Of a stretch of DNA of 64,000 bases, positions 12,437 through 36,766 are shown piece after piece. The notes below the pieces were generated by a model, which had not been told where the DNA came from, made no database searches, and saw nothing but the letters and a program-made list of their open reading frames with translations. Origin of the DNA: Minisyncoccota bacterium (GTDB taxonomy: Bacteria > Patescibacteriota > Minisyncoccia > UBA6257 > 2-01-FULL-56-20). Position 1 is the stretch's first letter; each line of letters begins with the position of its first letter. A program made the position numbers and the translations under genes. The stretch spans positions 8,695 through 72,694 of the forward strand of contig JBAYLC010000005.1 of assembly GCA_041664245.1 (NCBI GenBank). Direction: 5' to 3'.

Positions 12437-12473
12437 AAGAAATTTTTAAAAAAGAGATTGAAATTTTTATCAC

Positions 12474-12506
12474 TAGCCACTCTAATCCTTTCTGTGGCTA
12501 TTTTAC
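12474..12506 (+). terminator. rho-independent terminator after the DegT-family gene
   Basis: TAGCCAC-13 nt loop-GTGGCTA followed by TTTTACT. Confidence 0.5.
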
Positions 12507-12683
12507 TGAAGATAAAAATCTCGTACTTATTTTTAAAAAATCATCACTTATCTTGCATTTTTTTCGGTCTTAGTGCAAAATATGTTTGTTAAGTTTTAAG
12601 TACGCCCGGGGTTTTGTGTGTTATCTATGGCTTTTAAGATCACATCATTATTCGTCGAACTGATTCTAAGGGAGTAGTTTTTC

Positions 12684-13842: not shown

Positions 13843-13851
13843 ATTATTTTC

Positions 13852-14850: not shown

Positions 14851-15568
14851 TAAAATTAAGTATAAAACCAAGGAATCCGCTAATCCTCCAGAGATTGACG
14901 TAGTAATTTTAGCCGGTGGATTGGGAAAACGGTTACGTCGTGCAATCTCCGGTAAGCCTAAGGTGCTCGCAGAGGTGGCTGGGCGGCCGTTTCTCGATAT
15001 ATTAATTAACCATTTATTAACTGCCGGTTTTTATCGGGTTATTTTAAGTATTGGATATTTAAAAGATCAGATCAAAGATCGCTACAAAGGGAAGGGAATT
15101 ATTTTTGCCGAGGAAGAAGATCCTTTGGGAACTGGCGGAGGAATAAAAAATGCCCAACAGTTTATAAAGAGTGAAAATTTTTTTGTTATGAATGGAGATT
15201 CTTGGATATCAGATGGAATAGACATGCGCGCAATTCACGATTTTCATAAAAATAAAAAAGCGTTAATCACTATGGTGCTCTCTCGGCCCAGAGAGGAGAA
15301 GGATTACGGCGCAGTATTCTTGGGTGAAGATAATCGGATCAGCCGTTTTAATGAAAAATCAAAAGAGGAGAATGGCCATTTCTTAAATGCCGGCATCTAT
15401 ATCATGAATAAAAAAGTTTTATCTAAAATGAAAACAACTCCCTTCTCCCTTGAGGTTGATTTTTTTCCAGGATTAATTGGCGGAGCTTTTTATGGCTTCC
15501 CTATAAACGGAGAAGTAATTGATATTGGAACACCCGAAAGATATAAAGCTGCCCAGCAGAAATTTTAA
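14825..15568 (+). CDS. sugar-1-phosphate nucleotidyltransferase (HddC-like guanylyltransferase)
   Basis: VVILAGGLGKRLR motif. Track ORF begins at 14792; the internal ATG at 14825 is a more likely start. Start remains uncertain. Confidence 0.75.
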   Translation: MARKLILPNKIKYKTKESANPPEIDVVILAGGLGKRLRRAISGKPKVLAEVAGRPFLDILINHLLTAGFYRVILSIGYLKDQIKDRYKGKGIIFAEEEDPLGTGGGIKNAQQFIKSENFFVMNGDSWISDGIDMRAIHDFHKNKKALITMVLSRPREEKDYGAVFLGEDNRISRFNEKSKEENGHFLNAGIYIMNKKVLSKMKTTPFSLEVDFFPGLIGGAFYGFPINGEVIDIGTPERYKAAQQKF

Positions 15569-15639
15569 AGCTAATCATGATACTCATCTTCTCCGTAAAA
15601 ATTGTTTTTATATAATAGTCAATAATCTAATCAAAGGGT

Positions 15640-16890
15640 GTGCGCCCCGTGATTCGAAAATCCACAAATAGTAATAGAATGAAAATAGCTATTATATGTT
15701 TTAACCTCTTTACCGCCGGTGGAGCGCGTCTTGTTTTTAATCTCGCGCAGTCGTTGGGCGCACAAGGCGAAAAAGTTATAATCTACACCCCAAAATTTGA
15801 AGGCACAGATTTTCCTGATCTAGCAGAGGGACTCGAAATAAAAGTAGTTGAAAAAGAAATTAATTTTTTTAAAAGTAATAAGCCAAGAAATATTTTTGAT
15901 TGGATATGGAAAAAAATAAAACATGAGAGAGAATTTATAAAAACCTCTCGTGCAATTGCGGAACTCATGGACGCTGATTTTGATGCAGTGAACGTGCATG
16001 ATAGCTCATACCGTGTGGGGTATTACTACAAAAGAAAAAATCCGAACGCTAAAATCATTTGGACCGTAAACGGAGAGCCATTTCAATACCTTTCCCGCAA
16101 AAAATTAATGCGCGACATTTTGGGATATTGCTATCAATTCTTAAAGCGCCTTACGAGTTATAAGTTTTTGAATGCAATTGATGGGGCCGTTGTTTTGGCC
16201 AATGGAGATAGAGAATGGTTTAAAGGATCCCCGATAAGGAATGTATCGGTAGTAAGGGCCGGTCTTGATTTCAAGAAGTTTTATGCCCCCGTTAAGGATT
16301 TTCAGGAAAAGGCCAGAAAAAAATACGTAAAACTTATGGCGCTGGGCGCATTAAATGTTTTTCGGCGTTATGAAGACGTCATCCAAGCCGTAAAATATTT
16401 ACGCGAGTGGAATTACGACGCCAGCTCAGTAATTTTTGCCGCCAACGTTTGGAATGAAAACAAATATCAAGCGGACCTCCTCGAACTTATTAGAGAAAAT
16501 AATCTTGAAAAATTTGTAGAGATGCGTTTTAGTGGCGTTTCTGAAAAAGAGCTTGCGGGACTCTACCAAGATTCCGATATTTTCATCCAGGCAGTCTATG
16601 TCCCTCCGCCGGGACATCACGGCTGGGGACTCGTGAATTTCGAAGCTATGGCTGCAGGGCTGCCAGTTATTTTATGCAGAGCCTCAACCGCAACTGAAGT
16701 CCTTATTGACGGCGTGAGCGCCTTCTTTGTTGATCCTCTCTCACCGCGACAAATTGCCGAGAAAGTAAAACTGTGCATTGATCACCCGGATATATATGCT
16801 AAAGTTGCCAAATCCGGTCAGGATGTTGCTCAGAGTATGACGTGGGAAAAATATTCCAAGGAAATATTAATACTTCTCAAAAAAGCGTAA
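15640..16890 (+). CDS. GT4 glycosyltransferase (paralog of 19849-21033)
   Basis: C-terminal EAMAAGLPVI GT4 motif. True start may be the internal MKIAIICF at about 15679. Confidence 0.8.
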   Translation: MRPVIRKSTNSNRMKIAIICFNLFTAGGARLVFNLAQSLGAQGEKVIIYTPKFEGTDFPDLAEGLEIKVVEKEINFFKSNKPRNIFDWIWKKIKHEREFIKTSRAIAELMDADFDAVNVHDSSYRVGYYYKRKNPNAKIIWTVNGEPFQYLSRKKLMRDILGYCYQFLKRLTSYKFLNAIDGAVVLANGDREWFKGSPIRNVSVVRAGLDFKKFYAPVKDFQEKARKKYVKLMALGALNVFRRYEDVIQAVKYLREWNYDASSVIFAANVWNENKYQADLLELIRENNLEKFVEMRFSGVSEKELAGLYQDSDIFIQAVYVPPPGHHGWGLVNFEAMAAGLPVILCRASTATEVLIDGVSAFFVDPLSPRQIAEKVKLCIDHPDIYAKVAKSGQDVAQSMTWEKYSKEILILLKKA

Positions 16891-17036
16891 CGTTATTATA
16901 TTATTTTTTTCCTCTTTAAAATTGTATCAATAAAACATAGAATGGAGCGCATGCGAAATTATTTAGTTTAATTTGAATTAGAATCAAAGAATATTGCGAA
17001 GTGGAATGTGGTTGATATACAATAGAAATAAAAAAG

Positions 17037-17846
17037 ATGAGATCAAAAGTAGAGTTAGAAAAACGGATTGCCCTTATCACGGGCGGAAGTAACGGAATAG
17101 GGAAGGCAATCGCTGTGGCACTCGCCCGCGAAGGCGCTGATATTATTTTATGCGCCCTAGACTCGAAATCTCTGAGGGAAGCACAGGTAGAAATCGAAAA
17201 ACTTGGCGTGAAAGTTTGGAGTATGGCTTTCGACGCAACCGATCCTACTCAAGTAAAAAAATTTTTCTCAGATATTATCGCGAAGATCGGCCAGCTCGAT
17301 ATTCTTGTAAATAACGTCGGCGGTGTTCGCGATCACGCCACATTTAAGGAATTGGATGATAAACAATGGATTGATTCCTGGAAGCTTAACTTTATGACAA
17401 TGGTATATTTTACGCGTGAGGCATTGCCTTTACTCGAGAAATCAGAGCACGCGCGAATTATTAATATTTCAAGTAGTGCTGGTAAGCAGCCTGGAGGATT
17501 TAACCCCCACTATGGAGCGGCAAAAACCGCCGTTAATTCCTTAAGTAAGTATTTGGCGAATCAGCTCGCTCCCCAAAAAATTTTAGTAAATACCATAACT
17601 CCAAGCACAGTGAATGGCGGTTTATGGCATCCCCATATAGAGGATAAAGCGCGGCGTTCCGGAGTTTCCATCGCAGAAGCAACTAGGTTAATGGAAGAAG
17701 AGGTGATTAAGAAAACCCCGCTTGGGCAAGTTGGCACACCAGAAGATGTTGCCGAACTCGTTGCGTTTCTTGCTTCTGATAGAGCTAAGTTTATAACGGG
17801 AACCTGCATCGCCGTTGATGGTGGGCTTATAAAGTCTATTTTCTAA
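17037..17846 (+). CDS. SDR-family oxidoreductase (paralog of 9190-9993)
   Basis: LITGGSNGIGKAIA. Collinear with the 9190 protein across the full length. Confidence 0.85.
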   Translation: MRSKVELEKRIALITGGSNGIGKAIAVALAREGADIILCALDSKSLREAQVEIEKLGVKVWSMAFDATDPTQVKKFFSDIIAKIGQLDILVNNVGGVRDHATFKELDDKQWIDSWKLNFMTMVYFTREALPLLEKSEHARIINISSSAGKQPGGFNPHYGAAKTAVNSLSKYLANQLAPQKILVNTITPSTVNGGLWHPHIEDKARRSGVSIAEATRLMEEEVIKKTPLGQVGTPEDVAELVAFLASDRAKFITGTCIAVDGGLIKSIF

Positions 17847-17867
17847 TCTGGGTAAGCCTGAATTCGG

Positions 17868-19145
17868 TTATTTACTTATAATTTTAACCTCTGGAAGTGG
17901 GATTATGAATTTTGATCTTAAACCTTTCTTTCGAAGCTTCTTAATGATTGTATCCGCAATATGCCAGGAGAAAAGCAATACGTAATCTGGCTGATCTATG
18001 AAAAGTTGTTTTTCGTCAATGATTGGTATGTGCGTACCCGGTGAGTGAAGGCCGAGCTTCAGTGAACTGGATTGTTCAGCGAGGTAGGGAATAAGCAAGG
18101 AATCAATATGGCAGTAATTAAGAATGGGACTCGAGCGGCCCGGGCTTCCAACGCCCGCAATAGTCTTTTCTTTTAGTTTTAGTTCGGAGAGAAATTTCAC
18201 TAATTTTAACCGCGAAGTTTCGATTCTCTTTTTAAAATTAATATAGGTCGGTTGCTTGTAGAGCCCGGCTTTTTCTTCCGCCTGAATAAGCGAGGCGATG
18301 TGAGGGGATTGAGAAAGATTTTTTCCTTTCGTGGCAAAAACCCGAATTGATCCTCCAGATGAGGAGATACGTTCAGCATCCGTGAGGGTGAAGCCGAATT
18401 TTTCGAAAAGAAGCGAAAGTGGCTTCAGTGAATAAAAACGAAGATGTTCATGATACATTGTGTCATATTGCACTTTTTGAATCGTGTCTAAAAGATATTG
18501 TGATTCGGATATAAACACTCCGCCTGGTTTAAGTAGGGTATAAACCCCTTCCACGAAAGAGCTGAGATTATTAATGTGGGCAAAAACGTTTGTTGCGATA
18601 ACAAGCGAGGCGGTGCCGTGTTTTTTCACGATCTGCTTAGCGATCTCCTTCGTAAAGAAATCATTTATAGTCGGTATCCCTTGTTTTATTGCTATTCGCG
18701 CTACGTCCGTTGGCTCGATTCCTAAAACCCGCATCCCCTTTTCCTTGAAAGGTTGGAGCGCAGTGCCGTCGTTTGATCCAATATCCACAATAAGTGATCC
18801 TTTCGGTAGTTTTAATCGTGCCACGGTTGCCTCCGCAAGCTCTTTAAAATTATCAACAAGCATTTGTGTGATCCCTGTTCGATATGGATATTTTTTATGG
18901 AAAACCACTTGTGGCGGCGGAATAAAATCTAATTGAACCAATCCGCACTTAACACACCGTACCACGTTAATCGGGTAGTGAATTTCCTCTTCTTTTATCT
19001 CTTTAGCATTGAGTAAAACATCGCAGGGTGGTTGATGGTCCAAATTTACAATATCGATTAGCTCTTTAGAGCCGCAAATCTGGCAGGTCGTTAACTTTCC
19101 CAATGGGTTTTTATTCATTTTTTTAATTTCCTTTATATTCCGCAA
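17868..19145 (-). CDS. NDP-hexose C-methyltransferase (TylCIII/Methyltransf_13-14 type) with N-terminal Zn ribbon
   Basis: CQICGSKEL...CDVLL...VVRCVKCGLVQLD zinc-binding N-terminus. Class I SAM fold (IVDIGSNDG). Confidence 0.75.
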   Translation of the reverse strand: MRNIKEIKKMNKNPLGKLTTCQICGSKELIDIVNLDHQPPCDVLLNAKEIKEEEIHYPINVVRCVKCGLVQLDFIPPPQVVFHKKYPYRTGITQMLVDNFKELAEATVARLKLPKGSLIVDIGSNDGTALQPFKEKGMRVLGIEPTDVARIAIKQGIPTINDFFTKEIAKQIVKKHGTASLVIATNVFAHINNLSSFVEGVYTLLKPGGVFISESQYLLDTIQKVQYDTMYHEHLRFYSLKPLSLLFEKFGFTLTDAERISSSGGSIRVFATKGKNLSQSPHIASLIQAEEKAGLYKQPTYINFKKRIETSRLKLVKFLSELKLKEKTIAGVGSPGRSSPILNYCHIDSLLIPYLAEQSSSLKLGLHSPGTHIPIIDEKQLFIDQPDYVLLFSWHIADTIIKKLRKKGLRSKFIIPLPEVKIISK

Positions 19146-19233
19146 TTATAAACAAAGCGAATCTCTTTTACAAATTTACACCGCGACTCAAGTGTTGTCT
19201 GAGGTTGATTTTAAATGTACAATAATACCCGCA

Positions 19234-19800
19234 ATGATTTCTATGGATAGTATTGAAAAAGCGTTTGAGCAGCACGGCGAAATAGTGCGAAAAACCGCGG
19301 AAAGCATGGCGGCTGATATAAAAAAAGGCGCCTCAATACTAGAGCAGGCGGTAAAAAACGGTCATTGTGTCTTTATGTGTGGTAATGGGGGTTCGGCGGC
19401 GGATGCCCAGCACTTTGCGGCGGAATTTGTTTGCAAATATAAAAACGACCGGCGCCCCTTCTCGGCGGTAGCTCTTACTGTAGATACTTCTGCGCTAACC
19501 GCGATTGGTAACGATTTTGGCTTTGAGAACGTTTTTAGCCGCCAAATCGAGGCACTCGGTAGGAAAGAAGATGTACTCATTGCAATCACAACAAGCGGAA
19601 TTTCAAAAAATATTTTAAATGCCATCGTTAAAGCAAGGAAGTTAGGACTAACCGTTATAGCGCTTACTGGCGCCCGCGGGAAAAATATGGACGCTGATCT
19701 TGTTATTGCGATACCATCCGAAGAAACTGCGCGCATTCAAGAAATGCATGAACTGATCTATCACTCATGGTGTGAATATATTGAGTCAAAAATTATTTGA
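19234..19800 (+). CDS. gmhA: sedoheptulose-7-phosphate isomerase (SIS domain)
   Basis: VFMCGNGGSAADAQHFAAEFV is the GmhA signature. Track ORF starts at 19192; internal ATG 19234 is more plausible. Confidence 0.85.
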   Translation: MISMDSIEKAFEQHGEIVRKTAESMAADIKKGASILEQAVKNGHCVFMCGNGGSAADAQHFAAEFVCKYKNDRRPFSAVALTVDTSALTAIGNDFGFENVFSRQIEALGRKEDVLIAITTSGISKNILNAIVKARKLGLTVIALTGARGKNMDADLVIAIPSEETARIQEMHELIYHSWCEYIESKII

Positions 19801-24027: not shown

Positions 24028-24735
24028 ATGGAAAATTCAAAACCCCTAAAACTTCATCTTGGTTGCCAAGAAAAATATCTCGATGGATATGTTAATATCG
24101 ATCTTCCGCCAGAAGCCCACACCGTAGAAAAAGTGCGGGTGGATGTCTACGCCGATGTGCGCACTCTTTCTTATGAAGCTGAATCAATAAGCGAAGTGCG
24201 TTCTGAACATCTTCTTGAGCATTTTTCGCGCCAGGAATCCCTTCTACTTCTCGCCCGCTGGCATAAATGGCTGAAGATGGACGGCCTACTCCACGTTGAA
24301 ACCCCCGACTTTGAAGAATCCGCTAAAAAATTTCTAAAAGGCTCGCTCGATGAAAAATTCATGCTCGCTCGCCACATCTTTGGTTCCCATGAGGCGGACT
24401 GGGCCTATCACAAAGATTTTTGGTCGGAAGAAAAATTCCGGTTTGTTCTCGGCGAATTGGGCTATGGTGATTTCCACTTTGATAAAATTTCCAATAATCT
24501 TGAATCAAAATTTCCTGTTTTAAAAGGAACGTTCATTACTAAACCCGAAAGCGTCTTTAAAAAACTTGGGCCTTTAGGATTTAATAATCTGCCCAATATT
24601 ATCTGCTACGCTAAAAAAGTTAAAAAAGAAATTGACTACCTCGCGGCGATAAAGTGCATTCTAGAAAAATCACTCGTGGGCAGAGAAGCCAAAATATTAG
24701 AAGTTTGGCTCCTCGATATAAAAGGGAAAATATAA
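24028..24735 (+). CDS. small class I SAM-dependent methyltransferase-like protein
   Basis: LHLGCQEKYLDGYVNIDL resembles SAM motif I. Coupled to the upstream gene. Confidence 0.45.
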   Translation: MENSKPLKLHLGCQEKYLDGYVNIDLPPEAHTVEKVRVDVYADVRTLSYEAESISEVRSEHLLEHFSRQESLLLLARWHKWLKMDGLLHVETPDFEESAKKFLKGSLDEKFMLARHIFGSHEADWAYHKDFWSEEKFRFVLGELGYGDFHFDKISNNLESKFPVLKGTFITKPESVFKKLGPLGFNNLPNIICYAKKVKKEIDYLAAIKCILEKSLVGREAKILEVWLLDIKGKI

Positions 24736-25608: not shown

Positions 25609-25655
25609 ATCGCACATAGACGGATCGAAATTTGTCGTGCTACTCTATTGTTGTT

Positions 25656-26570
25656 ATGGCTAAGGTACTAATTACTGGTGTGGCGGGTTTTATCGGTTCA
25701 AATCTTGCCGAAAAATTGCTCCAAAATGGCCACGAGGTCATCGGTGTTGATGACCTCTCTTACGGTATTCTTGAGCAGGTTCCCAAGGGAGTTGAATTTC
25801 ACAAGATTGATATTCGATCAGAAGATATTTTTTCCCTGTTCAAAGGAGTGCATACGGTATTTCATCTTGCGGCAAAAAACGATTTAATTGCGTGTCAGGA
25901 AAATCCAGTAGAGACTATCAGCGTGAATGTGCACGGCACAATAAATATTTTTGAAGCCTCGCGTCGCGCGGGAGTAAAAAAAGTTGTATTTGCCTCATCT
26001 TCAGCGCTTGAAGAAGGAGAAGCAAGACTCAAGGGATTCTATGCGATCAGTAAGACAGTATGTGAAAAAATTGCGGACGGCTATCACGTCGCATTCGGTT
26101 TGAATTACGTCTTGCTTAGATATTTTAATGTTTATGGCCCCAGGCAGGATTATCGTCGCGCGCATCCACCTGTGATGAGCGCACTTATAATTAAAGTGCT
26201 CAAAGGAGAGCAGCCAATTCTCTACGAGGGATACGAAGAAAATAAGCGGGATTTTATTTATGTGGACGATGCTAATGATTTCAATATTTTATGCATCGAA
26301 AATGAGAATATGAATAATAAATTTTTTCGGCTGGGCACGGGGAAATCCAGTTCAATTGAAGATGTCTGGAATGCAGTTAAGAAAGTTACTGGTTCCAATC
26401 TTGAACCCATCATTAAATCTCGCCTGCCTCTAGACACGCTTTCTGTAACGTTAGCCGACATAACCGAAGCCGGAAAAATCGGCTGGAAAGCTAAGACCTC
26501 GCTAGAGGATGGTCTCAAGGCTCAATTTGAATATTTAAAGAGCGAATTTATAAAAGGGAAAATTAAATAA
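25656..26570 (+). CDS. NAD-dependent epimerase/dehydratase (UDP-hexose 4-epimerase-like)
   Basis: VLITGVAGFIGSNL and YAISK catalytic motif. Track ORF starts at 25632; ATG 25656 preferred. Confidence 0.8.
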   Translation: MAKVLITGVAGFIGSNLAEKLLQNGHEVIGVDDLSYGILEQVPKGVEFHKIDIRSEDIFSLFKGVHTVFHLAAKNDLIACQENPVETISVNVHGTINIFEASRRAGVKKVVFASSSALEEGEARLKGFYAISKTVCEKIADGYHVAFGLNYVLLRYFNVYGPRQDYRRAHPPVMSALIIKVLKGEQPILYEGYEENKRDFIYVDDANDFNILCIENENMNNKFFRLGTGKSSSIEDVWNAVKKVTGSNLEPIIKSRLPLDTLSVTLADITEAGKIGWKAKTSLEDGLKAQFEYLKSEFIKGKIK

Positions 26571-26655
26571 CTTTTTTATTGTCATCTCGTCAAAAATTTA
26601 AATAATTTTTAATCCCTATGGACGAAAGGCTATTTTCTAGATAAAATAAAAAGAA

Positions 26656-27642
26656 ATGATTATAACACGCACTCCTTTCCGAGTTACTTTAGGTGGTGGC
26701 GGTACCGACCTCCCCTCCTACTATTCTAAATACGGTGGATTTATTTTCTCCGCCGGCCTTGATAAATATATGTTTGTGAGTGTTAACCGCCCCGTTGTTG
26801 ATGATCTGATTCGCCTTAAATATTCCAAGAGTGAAACCGTTGAGCGTCTTGATCAGCTTCAACACGAAATAGCTCGGGAAACGCTTCGGATGATGGGCAT
26901 TGAAAAAGGAATTGAGATTAATTCCATTGCCGACATCTCTGCTGGTACCGGTCTTGGTTCGTCCAGTTGCTACGCTGTCGGTCTTCTCCGCGCTCTCCAC
27001 ACTTTAAAGCGGGAATATGTTCCTCTCCAGCAAATTGCCGAAGAAGATTTCAAAGTCGAAGCCGAAATTCTCGGCCGGCCTATCGGCAAGCAAGATCCCT
27101 ACCTCGCCGCTTTCGGCGGGCTTACTATTCTGGAAATTGAAAAGGACGGGAAAGTTAAAATTCGTAAAGCTAATGTTTCTGACGAAACCATTGATGCCTT
27201 AAATCGCAATATGCTCTTGTTTTTCACCGGTACCACTCGTAGTGCTGATGATATTTTAGGGGAACAGTCCACCGGGGTTAAGGAAGAAAAAAAAGATGTT
27301 ATTGAAAGCATGCATTACATTAAAGAGCTTGGTTACGAAATTTTGGAAGCTGTTGAAAGCGGTAATGTTGATGAGGTTGGTCGTTTGTTCCATGCTCATT
27401 GGCAACACAAAAAAAAGATTTCCGCTAAAATGTCCAACGAGCATTTCGATAAAATTTACGAAGTCGCGCGAGAAAATGGCGCTTTGGGTGGAAAAATATC
27501 TGGCGCTGGCGGAGGCGGTTTCTTCACTTTCTACGCGGAAAAAAATCACGGTAAATTAAAAAAGGTAATGGCCGAAATGGGTCTTCGTGAAATGCGCTAT
27601 CATTTTGACCTCGAGGGATCTAAGGTGTTGGTTGATTTCTAA
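26656..27642 (+). CDS. GHMP kinase, HddA-like sugar kinase (second copy)
   Basis: MIITRTPFRVTLGGGGTD and GTGLGSSS. Confidence 0.8.
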   Translation: MIITRTPFRVTLGGGGTDLPSYYSKYGGFIFSAGLDKYMFVSVNRPVVDDLIRLKYSKSETVERLDQLQHEIARETLRMMGIEKGIEINSIADISAGTGLGSSSCYAVGLLRALHTLKREYVPLQQIAEEDFKVEAEILGRPIGKQDPYLAAFGGLTILEIEKDGKVKIRKANVSDETIDALNRNMLLFFTGTTRSADDILGEQSTGVKEEKKDVIESMHYIKELGYEILEAVESGNVDEVGRLFHAHWQHKKKISAKMSNEHFDKIYEVARENGALGGKISGAGGGGFFTFYAEKNHGKLKKVMAEMGLREMRYHFDLEGSKVLVDF

Positions 27643-27657
27643 TTAGTAAAGTTTTCT

Positions 27658-28965
27658 ATGTGGCCCTATAAAATCGCTGTTCTTGGCCTCTGGCATTTGG
27701 GTGAAATCTATTCCGCCGGCCTATCCGACTTAGGGCATCAAGTAGTTGGTTTGAGTGAAGACGAATCATTAATCAGTAATTTTCAAAAAAATATTCCACC
27801 TTTGCCGGAGCCGAATCTTGAAGAAACTCTTAAAAATAATCAAGCCGTTGGTCGCTTAACTTTTAGTGCTGATTTTTCAAAGATTGAAGGTTGCGATGTG
27901 CTTTGGGTTACTTTCGATACCCCAGTAAATAATCAAGATGAAGTTGATCTAACTCTGATTTGGTCAGCGCTGGGAAAATCGTTACCGCATCTGAAAAATC
28001 AATCCCTGATTATTATTTCAAGTCAGATTCCAGTTGGCACTTCAAACAAAATTTGTGAATTTATAAATCAAAAGCGGCCAGATTTAAATTTTGATTATAT
28101 TTATTCCCCGGAAAATCTTCGCCTTGGCGAGGCCCTAGAGTGTTTCAAAAATCCCGGCCGAATTGTTTTTGGTGCTTTTAGTTCCAAGGCATCAGAAAAA
28201 TTTAAAGATATTCTATCGGGCCTTAAAACTGAATTTATCGAAATGAGCCCGGTTTCAGCCGAGATGTCTAAGCACGCCATTAATGCTTTTCTTGCCACTT
28301 CCGTTAGTTTTATAAACGACCTCTCTGATCTTTCCGAAAAAGTTGGAGCCGATATTATCGATGTTTCTCGGGCTCTTAAATCAGAACCAAGAATCGGCCC
28401 CAAGGCTTTTCTCAGCGCCGGTATTGGTTTCGCCGGCGGCACACTTGGTCGGGATCTTCAAGCTTTAATTAAATCCGCCAAAGACCAAAATATTTCTCTG
28501 CCAGTCATTGAAAGTATCTACGAAAAAAATAAAAATCGCGCCGAAGCCATATTAAATATTCTTCAAAAAAATTTAGGGGATTTTAAAAATAAAAAAATTT
28601 CTATTCTTGGCCTGACTTATAAACCCGGGACAAGAACCCTTCGCCGTTCAAGATCTTTGGAAATAGCGCTAAAGTTAAAAAATCTAGGTGCCCGCCTTTC
28701 TCTCTGCGATCCGCAAGTTGATGAGAAGGAACTGGCCTCTTTTGGCGATTTCGATTTTTCTCGCGATCCCTATCAGGCCGTTGCCAACGCTGAGGCCGTG
28801 ATTGTCGCTACCCCTTGGCCGGAGTTCAGGGATTTAGATTTTCAAAAATTAAAAGAAGTGGCATCTTCTAATGCTATTATTTTTGACACCTCTAACTTTT
28901 TTTCAGAAAAAGAATCTATAATTAAAAAAGTCGGTTTTATCTATCTTGGCATTGGCCGCAAATAA
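27658..28965 (+). CDS. UDP-glucose/GDP-mannose dehydrogenase-family protein with degenerate active site (probable pseudo-dehydrogenase or altered chemistry)
   Basis: Fold-level match (KIAVLGL N-terminus, ILGLTYKPGTRTLRRS C-terminal UDP-binding motif). NAD motif reads GLWHLG instead of GxGxxG. Active-site block GFAGGTLGRD aligns to GYGGYCLPKD, so the catalytic Cys aligns to Thr. Confidence 0.7.
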   Translation: MWPYKIAVLGLWHLGEIYSAGLSDLGHQVVGLSEDESLISNFQKNIPPLPEPNLEETLKNNQAVGRLTFSADFSKIEGCDVLWVTFDTPVNNQDEVDLTLIWSALGKSLPHLKNQSLIIISSQIPVGTSNKICEFINQKRPDLNFDYIYSPENLRLGEALECFKNPGRIVFGAFSSKASEKFKDILSGLKTEFIEMSPVSAEMSKHAINAFLATSVSFINDLSDLSEKVGADIIDVSRALKSEPRIGPKAFLSAGIGFAGGTLGRDLQALIKSAKDQNISLPVIESIYEKNKNRAEAILNILQKNLGDFKNKKISILGLTYKPGTRTLRRSRSLEIALKLKNLGARLSLCDPQVDEKELASFGDFDFSRDPYQAVANAEAVIVATPWPEFRDLDFQKLKEVASSNAIIFDTSNFFSEKESIIKKVGFIYLGIGRK

Positions 28966-28969
28966 TTCA

Positions 28970-29800
28970 ATGGATTTAGAAAATAAAGTTGTTCTTATAA
29001 CCGGCGCTAGCCGGGGTATTGGCAAGGCAGTCGCCGCCGCCTTCTTAAAAGAAGGAGCAAAGGTTATGCTTGCCGCCCGCTCCGAAGAAGAATTAAAAAT
29101 CACTCAACAAGAGTTTAAGATTAATTATCCGTTCGTTGAGATCGCTGCTTTTGATGTCTCTAATTTTCTCGAATCAACAGAAGTTGTTAAAAAAACTGTT
29201 GCCGCCTTTGGAACCATCGATATTCTTGTAAATGCCGCGGGAATCTATGGTCCCATTGGTCCGTCTGAAGAAATAGATATAAATCTTTGGAGAAATACCT
29301 ATGAAGTAAATGTTTTTGGAACTTTCCAGATGATCCATCAAGTCGCCCCTATCATGATCAAAAATAAATCCGGCAAAATCATAAATTTTTCCGGCGGTGG
29401 CGATGGGCCCCTTGCCCGTTTCAGCGCTTACAATTCCTCTAAAGTTGCCATTGTCCGCCTTACCGAAACCTTAGCCGTGGAATTTAAAGATTATAATCTT
29501 GAAGTAAATTGTCTCGCCCCTGGGCCGGTCAATACTAAATTTTTAGATGAAGCTCTTGCCGCCGGTGAAGGGAAGGTAGGGCCGGATAGGTATGCTATTC
29601 TTCAAAAACAAAAAGCGGACGGCGGTGTTCCTCCAGAAAAAACTGCCGAGCTCTGCGTTTTTCTAGCTTCATCAAGATCAAATGGCCTAACGGGTAAATT
29701 TTTAAGCGTCGTCTGGGATAAATGGCAAGACTGGGGGCCGGAAGAAATTAAAAAAATTATGGCGACCGATGTCTATACTCTGCGCCGGGTAAAAATATGA
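28970..29800 (+). CDS. SDR-family oxidoreductase
   Basis: VVLITGASRGIGKAVA. Track ORF starts at 28946. Confidence 0.8.
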   Translation: MDLENKVVLITGASRGIGKAVAAAFLKEGAKVMLAARSEEELKITQQEFKINYPFVEIAAFDVSNFLESTEVVKKTVAAFGTIDILVNAAGIYGPIGPSEEIDINLWRNTYEVNVFGTFQMIHQVAPIMIKNKSGKIINFSGGGDGPLARFSAYNSSKVAIVRLTETLAVEFKDYNLEVNCLAPGPVNTKFLDEALAAGEGKVGPDRYAILQKQKADGGVPPEKTAELCVFLASSRSNGLTGKFLSVVWDKWQDWGPEEIKKIMATDVYTLRRVKI

Positions 29801-30804
29801 AAAAAATAAATATCGGCATCGTTGGTGCTGGCAATATCGGCAGTAAAAGAGCTGAGGTTCTCAAAAAATTTAAAAATTGCCACCTTGTTGCCGTAAGTGA
29901 AGTTGATCCAAAAAGAGCCAGTGAATTTGCCAAAACTTACCAATGTGAAATTGTTTCCAAGTGGAGGGACTTGATTAATCGGCCCGATCTTCACGTTGTT
30001 ATTGTTTCGGTTCCTAATGTATTTACTGCTCCCGTTGTTATTGCTGCTCTAAAATCAGGTAAGCATGTTCTCTCTGAGAAGCCTTTTGGAAAAAATTCAA
30101 AAGAATCTCTTGCTATCATTAAGGCTGCCCGCAAAAATAAGCGGCTGGTGAAAGTTGGTTTCAATCATCGTTTCCACGCTGCCATAGGAAAGGCCAAAGA
30201 AATTTTTTATCGGGGAGAAATCGGAAAAATAATGTTTATCCGGTCCCGATACGGTTACGGCGGTCGCTTAGGAATGCAAAACGAATGGCGTTTTAACAAA
30301 AAAATTTCCGGCGGCGGGGAGCTTCTCGATCAAGGGGTTCATATTATTGATCTCTGCCGCTATTTTGCTGGTGAGTTTAAAGAAGTCTTCGGCTCCGTCT
30401 CTTCAAAATTTTGGTCTCCCGGAGTGGACGACAACGCTTTTGCCATAATGAAAAATGAAAAAGTTACCGCTAGTTTTCACGTTAGTGCTACCCAATGGAA
30501 GAATCTTTTTTCTTTTGAAATTTACGGTGACAAAGGTTTTTTAGATATTGAAGGAAAGGGTGGCAGCTACGGCCGGGAAACCCTTATTTTTGGAAAAAGA
30601 AAAAAAGAGTTTGGAATTCCTATTTTAAAAAATTTCGAATTTTCGGAAGATATTAGTTGGGAAAAAGAATGGCAGAATTTTTTGGGCGCCCTAGAAAATA
30701 AAAATAAAATTAACGGCGACATGAATGATGGTTATTTTGCTAACTATATCGCCGAAGCGATTTATAAATCTTCTAAATTAAATAAAATAGTTAGAATCAG
30801 CTGA
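29797..30804 (+). CDS. Gfo/Idh/MocA-family NAD(P) oxidoreductase
   Basis: INIGIVGAGNIG, EKP, and the characteristic length. Confidence 0.85.
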   Translation: MKKINIGIVGAGNIGSKRAEVLKKFKNCHLVAVSEVDPKRASEFAKTYQCEIVSKWRDLINRPDLHVVIVSVPNVFTAPVVIAALKSGKHVLSEKPFGKNSKESLAIIKAARKNKRLVKVGFNHRFHAAIGKAKEIFYRGEIGKIMFIRSRYGYGGRLGMQNEWRFNKKISGGGELLDQGVHIIDLCRYFAGEFKEVFGSVSSKFWSPGVDDNAFAIMKNEKVTASFHVSATQWKNLFSFEIYGDKGFLDIEGKGGSYGRETLIFGKRKKEFGIPILKNFEFSEDISWEKEWQNFLGALENKNKINGDMNDGYFANYIAEAIYKSSKLNKIVRIS

Positions 30805-30853
30805 TTATCTTTGACACAAATTTTGGTTTGGTTTAAACTAGAACCAACTCAAT

Positions 30854-31582
30854 ATGCCTCAAAAAATCGAAGATTTGAAGATAAAGATTTTTGCTGATGG
30901 CGCCGAAAAAGAAGGAATGGTTGAGCTGGCCAAACAGCCCTTCATTAAGGGTTTTACCACTAACCCGACTTTAATGCGGAAGGCTGGTATTACTGATTAT
31001 GTAAGTTTTGCCAAAGATATTCTTTCGGTTATAAAAGACAAATCCGTTTCTTTTGAAGTTTTTTCTGATGAATTTAATGAGATGGAACGCCAAGCGCGTC
31101 TCATTGCCTCTTGGGCTCCTAATGTTTATGTGAAAATTCCGATTTCTAACACAAAAGGGGAGTCGTCTTTTGATTTGGTAAAAAAACTTGCTTCAAGCGG
31201 CGTGAAAGTGAACGTCACGGCTATTTTAACCGTTCCCCAAACTGAGCACATAGTTAAGGCGCTTTCGCCCAGTGTTCCCTCCATAATCTCGGTTTTCGCC
31301 GGCCGAATCGCTGACACCGGAGTTGATCCAATGCCAATTATGAAAGAAGCTAAACAGATCATGACTGCATTTCCAAACGCCGAGCTTCTTTGGGCGAGTA
31401 CCCGGGAACTATATAACATCTATCAAGCCGAAGTAGTTGGGGCCGACATTATCACCGTTACCCACGACATCTTGAAAAAATTAGGGAAAGTAGGTTATGA
31501 TCATCACGAATTGTCAGTTGAAACCGTCAAAATGTTTTATGATGACGGCCAAAAAGTAGGGTATACCCTCTACGAATCTTAA
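30854..31582 (+). CDS. transaldolase-family protein (fructose-6-phosphate aldolase / short transaldolase)
   Basis: KIFADGA...GFTTNPTL...KIPIS motifs of the short TalC/FSA group. Plausible sedoheptulose-7-P supplier for the adjacent heptose genes. Confidence 0.75.
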   Translation: MPQKIEDLKIKIFADGAEKEGMVELAKQPFIKGFTTNPTLMRKAGITDYVSFAKDILSVIKDKSVSFEVFSDEFNEMERQARLIASWAPNVYVKIPISNTKGESSFDLVKKLASSGVKVNVTAILTVPQTEHIVKALSPSVPSIISVFAGRIADTGVDPMPIMKEAKQIMTAFPNAELLWASTRELYNIYQAEVVGADIITVTHDILKKLGKVGYDHHELSVETVKMFYDDGQKVGYTLYES

Positions 31583-31587
31583 GAAAT

Positions 31588-32202
31588 ATGTACTCAGAAT
31601 ATATAAATAGCTATCTAAATGAGGTTAAAACGATCGTTGATAAAATTGATCGAAATTCGATTAATAAATTTATAGAAGTTTTGAAAGGGGTTCGGGATCA
31701 AAAGGGGCGCTTGTTCATTATTGGCATCGGCGGCGGTGCCGGTCACGCCAGTCACGCGGTGAACGACTTCCGCAAACTCACCAGTATTGAATCCTATACT
31801 CCCGTTGATAACGTTTCGGAAATGACCGCCAGAGCCAATGACGATGGCTGGCACACGATTTTTTCTAATTGGCTTGCGGGAAGCTCTTTAAATAATAAAG
31901 ATGCCGTTTTTGTTTTCTCTGTTGGCGGCGGAAATTCCGAGAAAAATATCAGCCCTAACATTGTTGAAGCTCTTAAATATGCCAAGCAAGTTGGCGCGAA
32001 AGTAGTTGGAATTGTCGGTCGGGACGGCGGTTACACCGCCCAAGTGGCCGATGCCTGCGTTATTGTTCCAGTTGTAAATTCTGAAAACGTCACTCCTCAC
32101 ACCGAAGCTTTTCAGGCTATCATCTGGCACCTCATTGTTTCTCATCCCGGTTTTAAAACCAAAGAAGGTAAATGGGAGTCCGTCCAAACTCGAATAAGTT
32201 AG
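31588..32202 (+). CDS. SIS-domain sugar-phosphate isomerase (divergent GmhA-like)
   Basis: FIIGIGGGAGHASHAVNDF parallels GmhA GNGGSAADAQHFAAE. Confidence 0.65.
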   Translation: MYSEYINSYLNEVKTIVDKIDRNSINKFIEVLKGVRDQKGRLFIIGIGGGAGHASHAVNDFRKLTSIESYTPVDNVSEMTARANDDGWHTIFSNWLAGSSLNNKDAVFVFSVGGGNSEKNISPNIVEALKYAKQVGAKVVGIVGRDGGYTAQVADACVIVPVVNSENVTPHTEAFQAIIWHLIVSHPGFKTKEGKWESVQTRIS

Positions 32203-32765
32203 CCAGAAGGAAAGCTGTTTTTCTCGACCGCGACGGAACTATAATCCATCACGTCGAGTTGATGCACCGGGTCGCTGATTTGAAATTTTTCCCGCAAACT
32301 GCGAGTGCAATCAAATCGCTAAATCGGCTCGGATTTTTAGTGGTGGTAATTACAAACCAGCCAGTTATCGCGCGCGGGATTATCACTCCCAAAGAAGTTG
32401 ATGCGATCCACGCCGTCTTAATAGAACGCCTGAATAAAAAAGGCGCTCGTATTGATGCCGTCTATTTTTGCCCCCATCATCCCAACGCCGACTTAAAAAA
32501 ATATCGCCTCAAATGCCGCTGTCGCAAACCAGCCCCCGGGCTTATCCTGAAAGCCCTTAAGGAATTCAATATTAATCCTAAAAAAAGTTTTATGATCGGC
32601 GATTCGGTGATTGATATTGTTGCCGGGCATAAAGCCAAACTCAAAACTATTCTTGTTAAAACCGGTCCCGGCCACGCCCGAGACAAAGAATTCGTTGATA
32701 TCAAACCGAATTTTACTTCCGAAAATTTACTCGCCGCCGTTAAGATCGTTGAAGATCATTCTTGA
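32172..32765 (+). CDS. gmhB: D,D-heptose 1,7-bisphosphate phosphatase (HAD-IIIA)
   Basis: AVFLDRDGTI, Zn site CPHHP...CRCRKP, GDS.ID. Confidence 0.8.
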   Translation: MGVRPNSNKLARRKAVFLDRDGTIIHHVELMHRVADLKFFPQTASAIKSLNRLGFLVVVITNQPVIARGIITPKEVDAIHAVLIERLNKKGARIDAVYFCPHHPNADLKKYRLKCRCRKPAPGLILKALKEFNINPKKSFMIGDSVIDIVAGHKAKLKTILVKTGPGHARDKEFVDIKPNFTSENLLAAVKIVEDHS

Positions 32766-32782
32766 TTTTCGTTTTATAAATC

Positions 32783-33535
32783 ATGAATTCTAATTCATCT
32801 AAAATAACTCAGGCCGTCATTCTCTGCGCCGGTCTTGGTACTCGCCTTCGGCCGTTAACCGATACCGTTCCCAAGCCGATGATTCCTCTTTTAGGTAAGC
32901 CGATGCTTGAGTGGAATATTGAGAATTTAAAAAGCCATGGTGTCGCCGAATTTTTTATTAATCTTCATCACCTTCCCGAGGTGGTCAAAAATTATTTCGG
33001 CGATGGTTCGCGTTTTGGGATAAAAATAAATTATAGTTACGAACCGGAAATCTTGGGCACTGCCGGCGGCCTCAAAAATTTCGAGAATTTGGTCGGAGAA
33101 AATTTCTTTTTGATTTATGGCGATATGTTAAGTTTAGTTGATTATTCCAAAATGGCCACTGCCTTTTTTTCGAAAAAAGATTCGATCGGTATGCAACGGA
33201 CCAAGAAAACCAGTGACTATGCGGATGCCGATGTGGCCGAACTGGACAGTGATATGAAATTTATAAAAATCCACCCTAAACCCCATCTCGAATCCTATCC
33301 CAACGCCCATCGCATGCGCGGCGTCTTTATATTCAGAAAAGAAATTTTTTCTCTAATTCCCGCCAAAACTTTTTACGAAATCGGGCGCCAGCTTCTTCCT
33401 GGCGTTGTGGCTAGGGGAAAAAATTTCTATGGTTATGAGTGTGAGGAATATTCCAAAGGAATTGATACAGTAGATAAATATAAAGAGGTGGAAAGTTATC
33501 TAAAAAATATTAATTTAAAAGAGTTTATAAAATAA
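32783..33535 (+). CDS. sugar-1-phosphate nucleotidyltransferase (HddC-like, second copy)
   Basis: AVILCAGLGTRLRPLT. Confidence 0.75.
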   Translation: MNSNSSKITQAVILCAGLGTRLRPLTDTVPKPMIPLLGKPMLEWNIENLKSHGVAEFFINLHHLPEVVKNYFGDGSRFGIKINYSYEPEILGTAGGLKNFENLVGENFFLIYGDMLSLVDYSKMATAFFSKKDSIGMQRTKKTSDYADADVAELDSDMKFIKIHPKPHLESYPNAHRMRGVFIFRKEIFSLIPAKTFYEIGRQLLPGVVARGKNFYGYECEEYSKGIDTVDKYKEVESYLKNINLKEFIK

Positions 33536-34914: not shown

Positions 34915-35844
34915 CTATCGGATTTTTTCTAGAATCTTCCAGAGTTTTTCCGCCTGCTGCGAATCTCTTGTGGCGATGAGCGCAGTGCGGCGAACATTAG
35001 TTTTTGTTCTCCTATACGAAATCTCGTCAAGATTTTCGAGGCGAATAATTCTCCTAGCTTGCCGATGAACCTCGTGGCGATAAAGAATTACTTTTCCGCC
35101 AAGCGCGTTAATAATCGCCATTCCGGGAGTTATGTCCCAGATCGCTTGGTGGTCTTGAATTACTCCATCGGCGATTCCGCAGGCAATCATCGCGAGGGCC
35201 ATCGATCCCGAATTAGCTGTAAGCAAGCGTCTGGTTTTAGTAGCGAGCTCGTTTTTGACCTGATTAAACAAGGGAAGTAAATCAAGATCGGCTCCCCAAT
35301 ACCAGACTCGTGTTTGATCTTGTTTCGGTTCTCGCTCGATTCCGCCGTCTTCCTCCAGCCACAAAACCCCTTTCCCAATTTCTCCAATCACCAGGGTGCC
35401 GCCTCTTATCTCCGGCATATAAACTACACCGGCTATAAGTTTGTCGTCTTCCCAAACCGCAATCGCTACTGACCAATCCGGCAAGCCGAGAGCTTGCATA
35501 GCGGTACCATCTATAGAATCCACATCAAAACGCAGGCCGTCAAAAGAAAAAACATAATTCGGATCATTTCTCCCCGTCGAGAGAAGAAGATTTGAGTATC
35601 TCTCTGTTTTTTCCTCTGCTAGAAACTTCGCTTCGGGATGGAGAGCGGAAAGAAGTAGAATTATCAACTCCTGAGCGGCAACGTCCGTAGGAGTAACTAT
35701 CGCCCTGAAGTTCTCCTTACTTCTTGTACTTCTCGTGTTCTTCGGAAGGGAGCCGCCTCTGATTATTTTTCCTACAATAAGCGCTACTTGAGCAGCACTC
35801 ACCACAGGAAATGAGAATCGTTGCAGACCAATAAGGGCTTTCAT
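34915..35844 (-). CDS. inositol-monophosphatase-family phosphatase
   Basis: FDVDSIDGT and WDITPG motifs of the IMPase/CysQ family. Confidence 0.75.
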   Translation of the reverse strand: MKALIGLQRFSFPVVSAAQVALIVGKIIRGGSLPKNTRSTRSKENFRAIVTPTDVAAQELIILLLSALHPEAKFLAEEKTERYSNLLLSTGRNDPNYVFSFDGLRFDVDSIDGTAMQALGLPDWSVAIAVWEDDKLIAGVVYMPEIRGGTLVIGEIGKGVLWLEEDGGIEREPKQDQTRVWYWGADLDLLPLFNQVKNELATKTRRLLTANSGSMALAMIACGIADGVIQDHQAIWDITPGMAIINALGGKVILYRHEVHRQARRIIRLENLDEISYRRTKTNVRRTALIATRDSQQAEKLWKILEKIR

Positions 35845-35845
35845 C

Positions 35846-36766
35846 TCATATCCCTTCGCCGCGCAAATGAGCGGCAGTAATCTCGTGCGGCCACGGGACC
35901 GTCATCGGCTGTTCTCCTAGAAGTCCAGAATCTTCTGTCGCGCCCCAGTTATTCAGAATTGGCACATAAAATCCATAAACAAGACTTCCAAGTTCGGTGA
36001 TTTTGAAGCTCATCTTGTATTCTGGCGGCAATCCTCCGGGATCGCTTCGAAAACGTTCGGCGTAGAGCCGAATTATTTTGAGAACAATGTTGGCGAATTG
36101 GACTCGTGACGCCTGCCCAATGTTTATCGTCTCTTTGGGAACAAAAAAACATTGGCCGGCTCGATATCCGCCTGCGAAAACTCGACAAGTCGAATCCTCG
36201 AAAATCAGTAACTCTGGTCGCTGCCCTTGTTCATCGAGCCACTTTCTGACATCGCCTCGGTTCATTTCGATTCCATAACCGAGACTTCCTGGTTTTGCCA
36301 ACTTAGCCGGAGCTGGTGGCTCCAAGATATGGAAATGTAGATGAGGAATGTTCTGTCCGGCAAGAGGACCGATATGAACGGTAAGTGATAGAAATCTCTT
36401 TACCTCTCCCGCAACCATATCCACAATTTTCGACGCCACCATTAAAACTTCCCCAAAAGATCCAGCCCCGCCCAACTCATACAAACGATTATTATCCCAA
36501 CATGAATTAGGAATAATTAAGTCGTGTATTGGATAGGGGGTAAATTGATTTTTCATCACCGCCCAGGTTCCGTTTGCCCCCGGGTAGAGAGTTTTTTCTT
36601 CTGCATTCCATTTCGTGCAAAACGGGCAACTCGCCGAATCGGCTACTGGTAGTCGCTGTTGCCAGGATCGCCTAAGCTTTATTTCCGTTCTGGTTCCTCC
36701 AAAGAAAATTCCTGGACCTCCGCCCGGAATTCCCTCAATCTTCATCGGGAAAACCGATTCAGTCAT
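35846..36766 (-). CDS. GalT-like HIT-family sugar-phosphate nucleotidyltransferase/phosphorylase
   Basis: Zn motif CPFCTKW and HIT motif NIPHLHFHILEP. Stop and start abut the IMPase gene. Confidence 0.6.
   Translation of the reverse strand: MTESVFPMKIEGIPGGGPGIFFGGTRTEIKLRRSWQQRLPVADSASCPFCTKWNAEEKTLYPGANGTWAVMKNQFTPYPIHDLIIPNSCWDNNRLYELGGAGSFGEVLMVASKIVDMVAGEVKRFLSLTVHIGPLAGQNIPHLHFHILEPPAPAKLAKPGSLGYGIEMNRGDVRKWLDEQGQRPELLIFEDSTCRVFAGGYRAGQCFFVPKETINIGQASRVQFANIVLKIIRLYAERFRSDPGGLPPEYKMSFKITELGSLVYGFYVPILNNWGATEDSGLLGEQPMTVPWPHEITAAHLRGEGI

Follow-up and report, generated by a model that had tools for sequence, protein, structure and literature searches.

What chemistry is left to a nucleotide-sugar dehydrogenase that lacks its catalytic cysteine is the question raised by a gene at positions 27658..28965 of the window, by which we mean the whole 64,000-nucleotide stretch of contig JBAYLC010000005.1 (from a Minisyncoccota bacterium) that was analysed; all positions given are those of the window unless another sequence is named. 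The product of this gene belongs to the UGDH/GMD superfamily, and an earlier note on the same DNA had offered three options for it: a pseudo-enzyme, a two-electron-only oxidase forming a nucleoside-diphosphate (NDP) sugar 6-aldehyde, or a reductase working in reverse. The residue pattern of the protein, the conservation of that pattern, the gene cassette in which it stands and the fusions to a short-chain dehydrogenase/reductase (SDR) are direct observations and are described first. Taken together they lead us to favour, with moderate confidence in the reading as a whole, an active, neofunctionalised C6 dehydrogenase that removes two electrons from a secondary alcohol of an NDP-octose or NDP-heptose, with 6,8-dehydration and keto-reduction leading to a sugar of the surface glycan.

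A UGDH-fold protein with an altered active site

27658..28965, + strand: UGDH/GMD-superfamily protein, Cys-less subfamily; 435 amino acids (aa), ATG start, intact full-length open reading frame (ORF)

The product matches all three Pfam UDPG_MGDP_dh domains, with E-values of 1.9e-33 (N-terminal, PF03721; 116 bits against a cut-off of 27), 2.4e-24 (central, PF00984; 85.7 against 25.4) and 2.7e-25 (C-terminal, PF03720; 89.2 against 30), and reaches 312 bits with the NDP-sugar dehydrogenase subfamily model TIGR03026 (cut-off 189.8). The equivalog cut-offs are all missed, namely those of TuaD (289 against 700 bits), AglM (239 against 670), WecC (126 against 750) and TviB (51 against 592). Its nearest solved relatives are bacterial UGDHs, 4a7p (3.4e-71) followed by 3vtf and 3gg2. 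An AlphaFold2 model, computed with 41 homologues as input, has a mean predicted local distance difference test (pLDDT) score of 93.7 and superposes in Foldseek on the UGDHs 4a7p and 2y0d with template-modelling (TM) scores of 0.93-0.94 and root-mean-square deviations of 1.7-2.1; the N-terminal domain is a normal Rossmann fold in this high-confidence model. The fold-level match to UGDH/GMD claimed in the earlier note is thus borne out by the Pfam, TIGR03026 and structural comparisons alike, and the C-terminal motif that it had named, ILGLTYKPGTR, is present at aa 316-326.

Residues were matched through three independent pairwise HMMER alignments, to the solved UGDHs 4a7p, 3vtf and 3gg2, and through the alignment of relatives described in the next section. 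The elements that concern the active site and the cofactor loop, all on the + strand, are as follows.

27685..27702, +: glycine-rich loop GLWHLG (aa 10-15), aligned to GTGYVG, with Trp12 for the middle Gly and His13 for Tyr
28018..28032, +: SSQIP, canonically K-S-T-V-P, with Gln123 for Thr
28105..28134, +: SPENLRLGEA, canonically NPEFLREG; E152 kept, F153N, E156L
28270..28284, +: K205-H206-A-I-N209; catalytic Lys and Asn kept, His206 for Tyr
28426..28455, +: active-site loop GFAGGTLGRD; Thr262 for the Cys nucleophile, Arg265 for Lys, Asp266 kept
28603..28635, +: ILGLTYKPGTR, start of the nucleotide-sugar-binding C-terminal domain motif; GLTYKxxTxTLRRS in the family, GLxFKxxTDDxR in canonical enzymes

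In each of the three alignments GFAGGTLGRD (aa 257-266) matches G(Y/F)GGSCFPKD without a gap, which places Thr262 (codon ACA, nucleotides 28441-28443, two changes from TGY) at the position of the catalytic Cys and Gly264-Arg265 at that of the Pro-Lys before the conserved Asp; both replacements had been read from the sequence in the earlier note, as had GLWHLG in place of GxGxxG, and both readings hold. Cysteines occur at positions 79, 133, 162 and 350 and nowhere else in the protein, so no shift of the alignment, the event that might have overturned the assignment, can bring one to the catalytic position. To the substitutions already recognised, the alignment of relatives with canonical UGDHs adds G87D, T123Q, F153N, E156L and Y206H.

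In UGDH, Lys, Asn and Asp serve the oxidation of the alcohol, and the Cys, together with a Glu/Thr-bound water, serves the formation and hydrolysis of the thiohemiacetal/thioester. The title of PDB entry 3khu ('Glu161Gln in complex with thiohemiacetal intermediate') is consistent with these roles. The Lys, Asn and Asp of the oxidation step are present here as K205, N209 and D266, and the hydrolysis residues are replaced, the Thr of KSTVP by Gln123 and the second Glu of PEFxxEG by Leu156. Judged from the aligned residues, the family has kept those of the first half-reaction and replaced those of the second.

Conservation of the alternative residue set

The 120 closest database relatives (51-62% identity, mostly metagenome-assembled genomes, MAGs, of Patescibacteria) were aligned with two canonical UGDHs. 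They depart uniformly from the canonical form at G12W, Y13H, G87D, T123Q, F153N, E156L, Y206H, C262T, F263L, K265R, D327T and A331S, and are unchanged at K205, N209, D266 and E152. The signature of the subfamily may be written as below.

Cys-less subfamily signature: GxWHxG / DTP / SSQxP / PENLRLG / KHxxN / GGTLxRD / YKxxTxTLRRS

An HMMER search over 1.84 billion cluster representatives (50%-identity clusters) recovered it, in the form G-W-H-G / D-T-Q-E-N-L / K-H-N / G-G-T-L-x-R-D / Y-K-T-S, in about 135 of the best 150 representatives, whose mutual identity is at most 50% and whose identity to the query falls to 33%; roughly a dozen of the 150 are canonical proteins (GGYG / GTTEFE / KYN / GGSCFPKD), and there are essentially no intermediates. 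The alternative set (W12, H13, D87, Q123, N153, L156, H206, T262, R265) is found in about 378 of 397 relatives drawn from many phyla. Among 365 aligned single-domain members, to which all residue percentages refer, T262, R265, Q123, D87, L156, H206, K205, N209, E152 and D266 are 99-100% conserved, N153 about 100%, H13 98% and W12 96%. Rare members carry His (FSGGHLERD) or Ser (YEGSSLARE) at position 262 (P0123 and P0263), with the rest of the signature kept, and may be of use in working out the role of the Thr.

Because the same residues recur at 96-100% in 365 relatives, the substitutions are more than chance or sequencing error. Sequencing error and a pseudogene were considered and are ruled out, ACA being two changes from a Cys codon and Thr invariant in the family. 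What they make up is a different active site, itself conserved, rather than a decayed one. The same holds for the dinucleotide-binding loop, which the earlier note had called a degenerate NAD motif: the loop is altered as stated, but 'degenerate' does not describe it, and it is better regarded as a conserved variant, G-x-W-H-x-G, in a domain whose acidic residue on Rossmann strand β2 is mostly kept (Asp at position 33 in 64% and Glu in a further 7%; D35 in 75%; the query has Ser, then Glu-Asp). T88-P89 and S122 are likewise kept.

The gene cassette

The UGDH-like gene lies within a compact same-strand block, contiguous from 25656 to 33535, with 4-nucleotide (nt) spacing or overlaps. Its companions are listed with their likeness, by enzyme family, to proteins of the lincomycin (Lmb) pathway considered below.

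25656..26570, +: extended-SDR NAD-dependent epimerase/dehydratase, LmbM-like by family; ORF opens at 25632, likely ATG at 25656
26656..27642, +: GHMP kinase, HddA-like anomeric sugar-phosphate kinase, LmbP-like by family
28970..29800, +: classical SDR (adh_short); TGxxxGxG and YxxxK intact; ATG 4 nt past the UGDH-like stop
29797..30804, +: Gfo/Idh/MocA oxidoreductase, LmbZ-like by family; GxGxxG and EKP intact; start overlaps the SDR stop (ATGA)
30854..31582, +: small transaldolase, LmbR-like by family; TIGR02134, 332 bits
31588..32202, +: divergent GmhA-like SIS isomerase, LmbN-like by family; gmhA 52 bits against a cut-off of 209
32172..32765, +: GmhB-like HAD-IIIA sugar bisphosphate phosphatase, LmbK-like by family
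32783..33535, +: sugar-1-phosphate nucleotidyltransferase, LmbO/HddC-like by family

The transaldolase of the window passes the trusted cut-off of TIGR02134. This model bears the plain label 'transaldolase' and is based on a housekeeping enzyme of the pentose-phosphate pathway in Staphylococcus and Coxiella. Between phyla, the transaldolases of the cassette share 50-58% identity (tblastn with the window proteins), and this equivalog may therefore conflate enzymes of the pentose-phosphate and sugar-nucleotide pathways.

The cassette in other genomes

A codon-biased DNA pattern for the Thr loop, G..F.GGTL[AG]RD, gave at least 120 matches in species-representative genomes. The lineages among the matches listed include Verrucomicrobiota, Planctomycetota (including Gemmata algarum), Acidobacteriota, Actinomycetota (Solirubrobacterales, Bifidobacteriaceae), Myxococcota, Alphaproteobacteria, Rokubacteria, Elusimicrobia and a Micrarchaeia archaeon. 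Genome loci are un-centred 8-kb blocks and neighbour counts are lower bounds; at least 114 loci hold the UGDH-like gene. Searched by tblastn with the window proteins, the 114 loci among the matches listed contain the SDR in at least 87 cases, the epimerase in at least 73, the Gfo/Idh/MocA enzyme in at least 65, the kinase in at least 49, and the transaldolase, SIS isomerase, nucleotidyltransferase and HAD phosphatase in at least 23-27 each. Where enough flank was available, and again among the matches listed, the UGDH-like gene is followed immediately on the same strand by the SDR in 78 of 90 loci and preceded by the epimerase in 48 of 81, and the Gfo/Idh/MocA gene lies at most 2.4 kb downstream in 36 of 65. 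The classical SDR is thus the most conserved partner of the UGDH-like gene, and the two are also naturally fused, as SDR-UGDH-like proteins (P0122, P0163, P0211) and in the reverse order (P0217, P0218). One fusion, in a set that includes P0169, bears an N-terminal GT2 glycosyltransferase. Replacement of the SDR by an aminotransferase in some cassette variants was considered and rejected, DegT homologues being found in 2 loci only among the matches listed.

Individual genomes give a similar picture. A Liptonbacteria-like contig (L002) of the candidate phyla radiation (CPR) has the same gene set around the homologue, and the cassette is present in a Jatrophihabitans MAG. Metagenome contig L004 carries SIS, transaldolase, GHMP kinase, two epimerases, the UGDH-like gene, Gfo/Idh/MocA, a further epimerase, nucleotidyltransferase and HAD, with no adjacent adh_short gene, and a Dehalococcoidia MAG (L006) has epimerase, UGDH-like and Gfo/Idh/MocA genes in an overlapping order. 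A complete cassette occurs on plasmid 3 of Lawsonia intracellularis PHE/MN1-00 (L127, NC_008014.1 14573-22924), in the order SIS, HAD, transaldolase, one other gene, 'nucleotide sugar dehydrogenase', SDR, Gfo/Idh/MocA, 'galactokinase' and nucleotidyltransferase; its UGDH-like protein has GLWHLG, DTP, SSQLP, PENLRLG and GGTLARD. L. intracellularis is a cultured obligate intracellular pathogen of pigs, in which the cassette genes (LI_RS06835-06875) are all generically annotated, the kinase as 'galactokinase'. Rhizobium jaguaris CCGE525 and Gemmata algarum JC673 are further cultured carriers. A MAG assigned to a Candidatus Micrarchaeia archaeon (L015, JBAYHU010000006.1) contains the UGDH-like gene with SDR, kinase, SIS, HAD and nucleotidyltransferase genes and a weak transaldolase match, which suggests that the cassette has been passed between domains or, perhaps, that the MAG is contaminated.

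Proposed function and mechanism

The genes of the cassette invite comparison with the pathway to the octose of lincomycin. There the C8 sugar is built from ribose-5-phosphate and a C3 donor (fructose-6-phosphate or sedoheptulose-7-phosphate) via LmbR and LmbN, and lmbRSOPZNML forms a compact subcluster with 4-bp overlaps (PMC7014725), a gene order that places the epimerase gene lmbM directly upstream of lmbL. LmbM, LmbL, CcbZ and CcbS convert GDP-octose to GDP-lincosamide (PMC12945683). The assignments are C8 dehydrogenase for lmbL, epimerase for lmbM, oxidoreductase for lmbZ, kinase for lmbP, phosphatase for lmbK, guanylyltransferase for lmbO, transaldolase for lmbR and aminotransferase for lmbS (PMC4351081); according to the S1 document of the same paper, CcbL has 436 aa, and the best non-lincosamide matches of CcbZ, K, O, P and N are from Acidobacteria and Sorangium. 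The present cassette occurs in those lineages too. Wang et al. (PNAS, 2020) reportedly describe the conversion as 6-epimerisation, 6,8-dehydration (LmbL with CcbZ), 4-epimerisation and 6-transamination. Among characterised proteins LmbL/CcbL is the only plausible relative of the UGDH-like protein, a likeness that we draw from enzyme family and gene context rather than from sequence.

From its residues and neighbours, the UGDH-like protein is very probably active and neofunctionalised, serving to tailor an NDP-linked higher sugar. The transaldolase, the GmhA-, HddA- and GmhB-like enzymes, the nucleotidyltransferase, epimerase, SDR and Gfo/Idh/MocA protein encoded alongside it point to a heptose or octose, whose C6 bears a secondary alcohol; oxidation would therefore stop at the ketone, and the Cys and hydrolysis residues would be dispensable whilst Lys, Asn and Asp would be kept. 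A UGDH-type active site would place C6 against the nicotinamide; we lean somewhat towards C6 as the site of oxidation, and we consider an octose the rather better candidate than a heptose. A 6,8-dehydration route, suggested by the analogy with LmbL and LmbZ, is quite possible, if just short of probable. What the enzyme contributes to the surface glycan would probably be a keto-sugar, not a uronic acid. We infer from these comparisons the substrate, the regiochemistry at C6, the use of NAD and the order of steps set out here.

The pathway would begin with the transaldolase, GmhA-like isomerase, HddA-like kinase, GmhB-like phosphatase and nucleotidyltransferase, which would produce an NDP-octose as LmbR, LmbN, LmbP, LmbK and LmbO do or, less likely, an NDP-heptose, should the transaldolase merely supply sedoheptulose-7-phosphate. 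The UGDH-like enzyme, with NAD+, would then oxidise the secondary C6 hydroxyl to a ketone, a two-electron step for which a thiol would be unneeded. Since a 6-ketone acidifies the C7 proton, the 8-hydroxyl could be eliminated, with His206, Arg265, Gln123 and Asn153 as candidate participants. Re-reduction of the intermediate by the Gfo/Idh/MocA enzyme would complete a 6,8-dehydration as in LmbL with LmbZ/CcbZ, and the coupled classical SDR would reduce the 6-ketone in place of the transamination by LmbS; the extended-SDR epimerase would adjust stereocentres. The resulting NDP-8-deoxy-octose-type product would be taken up by the surrounding glycosyltransferases and the Wzx/Wzy machinery. In this scheme three redox steps would fall to three redox enzymes, the numbers matching.

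Several observations weigh against this scheme. The middle Gly of the dinucleotide loop is Trp12, and a Trp at this position would crowd the pyrophosphate in ordinary Rossmann folds. The transaldolase scores as the housekeeping type of TIGR02134 and might only supply sedoheptulose-7-phosphate, in which case the sugar would be a heptose; we know of no linear octose from a bacterial surface glycan. The likeness to LmbL/CcbL is one of enzyme family and gene set. No named lincosamide protein appeared among the named matches of two whole-database protein searches (queried with the window protein and with a Streptomyces-like member, P0241), and a tblastn search of plasmids with P0241 returned no Streptomyces member. 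The best outside match of CcbL in 2015 was only 33% identical (PMC4351081, S1 document). Finally, the most conserved partner of the UGDH-like gene, the classical SDR, is absent from the lmb cluster, and no aminotransferase adjoins the cassette.

Alternative explanations

The unusual cofactor loop bears most directly on the explanation that survives best after the C6 dehydrogenase, one that we nevertheless consider unlikely: a non-redox subunit that does not bind NAD because of Trp12 and acts as a nucleotide-sugar-binding, acid/base (dehydratase/isomerase) or scaffold partner of the SDR and/or the Gfo/Idh/MocA enzyme, which would carry the cofactors. G12W and G87D do alter two classic dinucleotide-contact positions, an SDR with intact TGxxxGxG and YxxxK stands downstream in 78 of 90 loci (among the matches listed) and is fused in several genomes, and the Gfo/Idh/MocA partner has an intact GxGxxG. 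Against such a subunit stand the oxidation residues K205, N209 and D266, which are 99-100% conserved, the acidic residue on β2, mostly kept (D/E33 about 71%, D35 75%) along with T88-P89 and S122, and the N-terminal domain, modelled with high confidence as a normal Rossmann fold.

The third option of the earlier note, here taken as a physiological reductase acting on a 6-keto or 7-keto intermediate supplied by the SDR or the Gfo/Idh/MocA enzyme, draws on the chemical reversibility of the first UGDH half-reaction and on the presence in the cassette of four nicotinamide-type enzymes whose order is unreadable from sequence. We regard it as distinctly unlikely: the sequence assigns no direction, the UGDH site by homology puts C6 beside the nicotinamide, and in sugar pathways ketone reduction usually falls to classical SDRs.

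The second option fares in two ways. Its two-electron part fits the data best, loss of the Cys with retention of Lys, Asn and Asp being what would halt oxidation at the aldehyde were the substrate a hexose. The proposed product does not fit, in that the cassette supplies a heptose/octose-type sugar rather than a hexose, and aminotransferases, which might use such an NDP-hexose 6-aldehyde if it were aminated rather than otherwise modified, are almost never adjacent; we therefore hold this form of the option to be very improbable. Decay to a pseudo-enzyme or a pseudogene that serves no particular function, to which the absence of the canonical Cys and GxGxxG might point, is scarcely credible for a full-length ORF with a pLDDT of 93.7, conserved synteny and conserved fusions, because the replaced positions are fixed for different residues, which do not vary among hundreds of sequences of many phyla with identities as low as 33% (constraint is not relaxed), and the Lys, Asn and Asp of oxidation are retained.

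Significance

The Cys-less clade emerges as a large, ancient and essentially uncharacterised branch of the UGDH superfamily, which is not canonical UGDH and should not be so annotated. Automatic annotation names thousands of such proteins 'UDP-glucose 6-dehydrogenase' or 'nucleotide sugar dehydrogenase', although they are predicted to be unable to form uronic acids; the signature would correct this and would flag a conserved nine-gene cassette, probably for a higher-carbon deoxy sugar. To our knowledge no sugar of this kind has so far been reported from the glycans of bacteria, CPR members and an animal pathogen among them, and a search of the literature returned nothing on a Cys-less UGDH clade, on this cassette with its SDR or on linear octoses in glycans. 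The clade also offers a natural experiment in the conversion of the UGDH scaffold from four-electron to two-electron chemistry, and another in a Rossmann loop with Trp at an 'obligatory' glycine.

A broader proposal can be advanced tentatively, as a possibility that we would not yet call likely: that the Cys-less clade, an obligate classical SDR and the Gfo/Idh/MocA enzyme form the core of an undescribed, very widespread pathway in which an NDP-octose is made de novo via a dedicated transaldolase and turned into an 8-deoxy-octose that goes into glycans of the cell surface. On this view secondary metabolism would have derived the lincosamide octose pathway from a primary glycan pathway, and the Trp-His loop would be a new way to hold or exclude the nicotinamide cofactor. 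The carriers would comprise CPR bacteria, Verrucomicrobiota, Planctomycetota, Acidobacteriota, Actinomycetota, Myxococcota, rhizobia, Lawsonia intracellularis and a DPANN archaeon.

The surrounding surface-glycan locus

The UGDH-like gene is enclosed by a surface-glycan locus of about 42 kb with many glycosyltransferases and methyltransferases inside, of which the following genes are relevant here.

203-1624: Wzy-like gene, at one end of the locus
2245-3225: GDP-mannose 4,6-dehydratase
6881-8392, +: B12-binding radical SAM enzyme
11258-12436: DegT aminotransferase, about 15 kb upstream of the cassette
12684-13292 and 13261-13842: split E1/transketolase-like thiamine pyrophosphate (TPP) enzyme
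13852-14850: second GHMP kinase
14792-15568: second nucleotidyltransferase
17868-19145, -: sugar C-methyltransferase
19192-19800: near-canonical GmhA, 187-207 bits
37758-39245, -: Wzx flippase
40997-42331, -: priming sugar transferase

Positions 11258-19800 hold a second unusual-sugar pathway, which also contains two classical SDRs. Its TPP pair is reminiscent of the enzymes that add a two-carbon branch in C4-branched octoses, yersiniose and paulomycose being examples (PMC4753412). Given this second set of GmhA, kinase and nucleotidyltransferase upstream, the cassette's own set probably handles a different sugar; the divergence of the cassette SIS protein (52 bits with gmhA, against 187-207 for the second GmhA) suggests a different ketose-phosphate substrate.

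Other genes of the locus may be noted in passing. The B12-binding radical SAM enzyme may be a methyltransferase or other modifier of the sugar or glycan. Adjoining the cassette at 34915-36766 (- strand) are an inositol-monophosphatase-family gene and then a gene whose product, about 300 aa long, matches a HIT domain weakly; the same pair is found in the Liptonbacteria-like relative (L002, 18281-20137), and the cassette of CPR bacteria may include it as an additional component. A 235-aa ORF without a Pfam match (24028-24735, + strand) lies between glycosyltransferase genes, and a 231-aa ORF, likewise without a Pfam match, occupies the same position in L002 (5041-5736).

Comparison with known systems

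Canonical NDP-sugar 6-dehydrogenases (UgdG, 4a7p; BceC, 2y0c; human UGDH; AlgD, 1mfz; WecC/Cap5O) share with the window protein the three-domain fold (TM 0.93-0.94, 26-32% identity), the Lys/Asn/Asp residues, the first Glu of the PE motif and the C-terminal nucleotide-binding domain. They differ from it at the catalytic Cys (Thr here), the Lys beside the Asp (Arg), GxGxxG (GxWHxG), G87 (Asp), the Thr replaced by Gln123 and the second Glu replaced by Leu156, and from these differences the window protein is predicted to be incapable of the second, thiohemiacetal/thioester oxidation.

The GDP-D-glycero-alpha-D-manno-heptose pathway (GmhA, HddA, GmhB, HddC) is matched weakly to moderately by the cassette kinase, phosphatase, isomerase and nucleotidyltransferase. 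All four fall below the equivalog cut-offs, however, the cassette SIS protein is far more divergent from GmhA than the second SIS protein of the locus, and the cassette has its own transaldolase, a feature that we do not know from heptose clusters. With the NDP-hexose 4,6-dehydratases (RmlB/Gmd) the analogy is functional only, in that these enzymes combine, as is proposed here, oxidation near the chain end, β-elimination of the terminal hydroxyl and re-reduction; their fold is an unrelated one (extended SDR), one enzyme with a single NAD+ bound carries out the whole reaction, and the positions concerned are C4/C6 instead of C6/C8.

The closest parallel is the lincomycin pathway. Both systems have a UGDH/GMD-family protein of about 436 aa, and in the window LmbM-, LmbZ-, LmbR-, LmbN-, LmbP-, LmbK- and LmbO-type genes, as judged by enzyme family, are co-located with it. 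The window cassette differs in having a classical SDR where lmb has the aminotransferase LmbS, with no DegT gene in the cassette, and in its setting, a Wzx/Wzy surface-glycan locus rather than an antibiotic cluster; its product would accordingly differ in kind, being a hydroxy sugar, whereas the lincosamide is an amino sugar.

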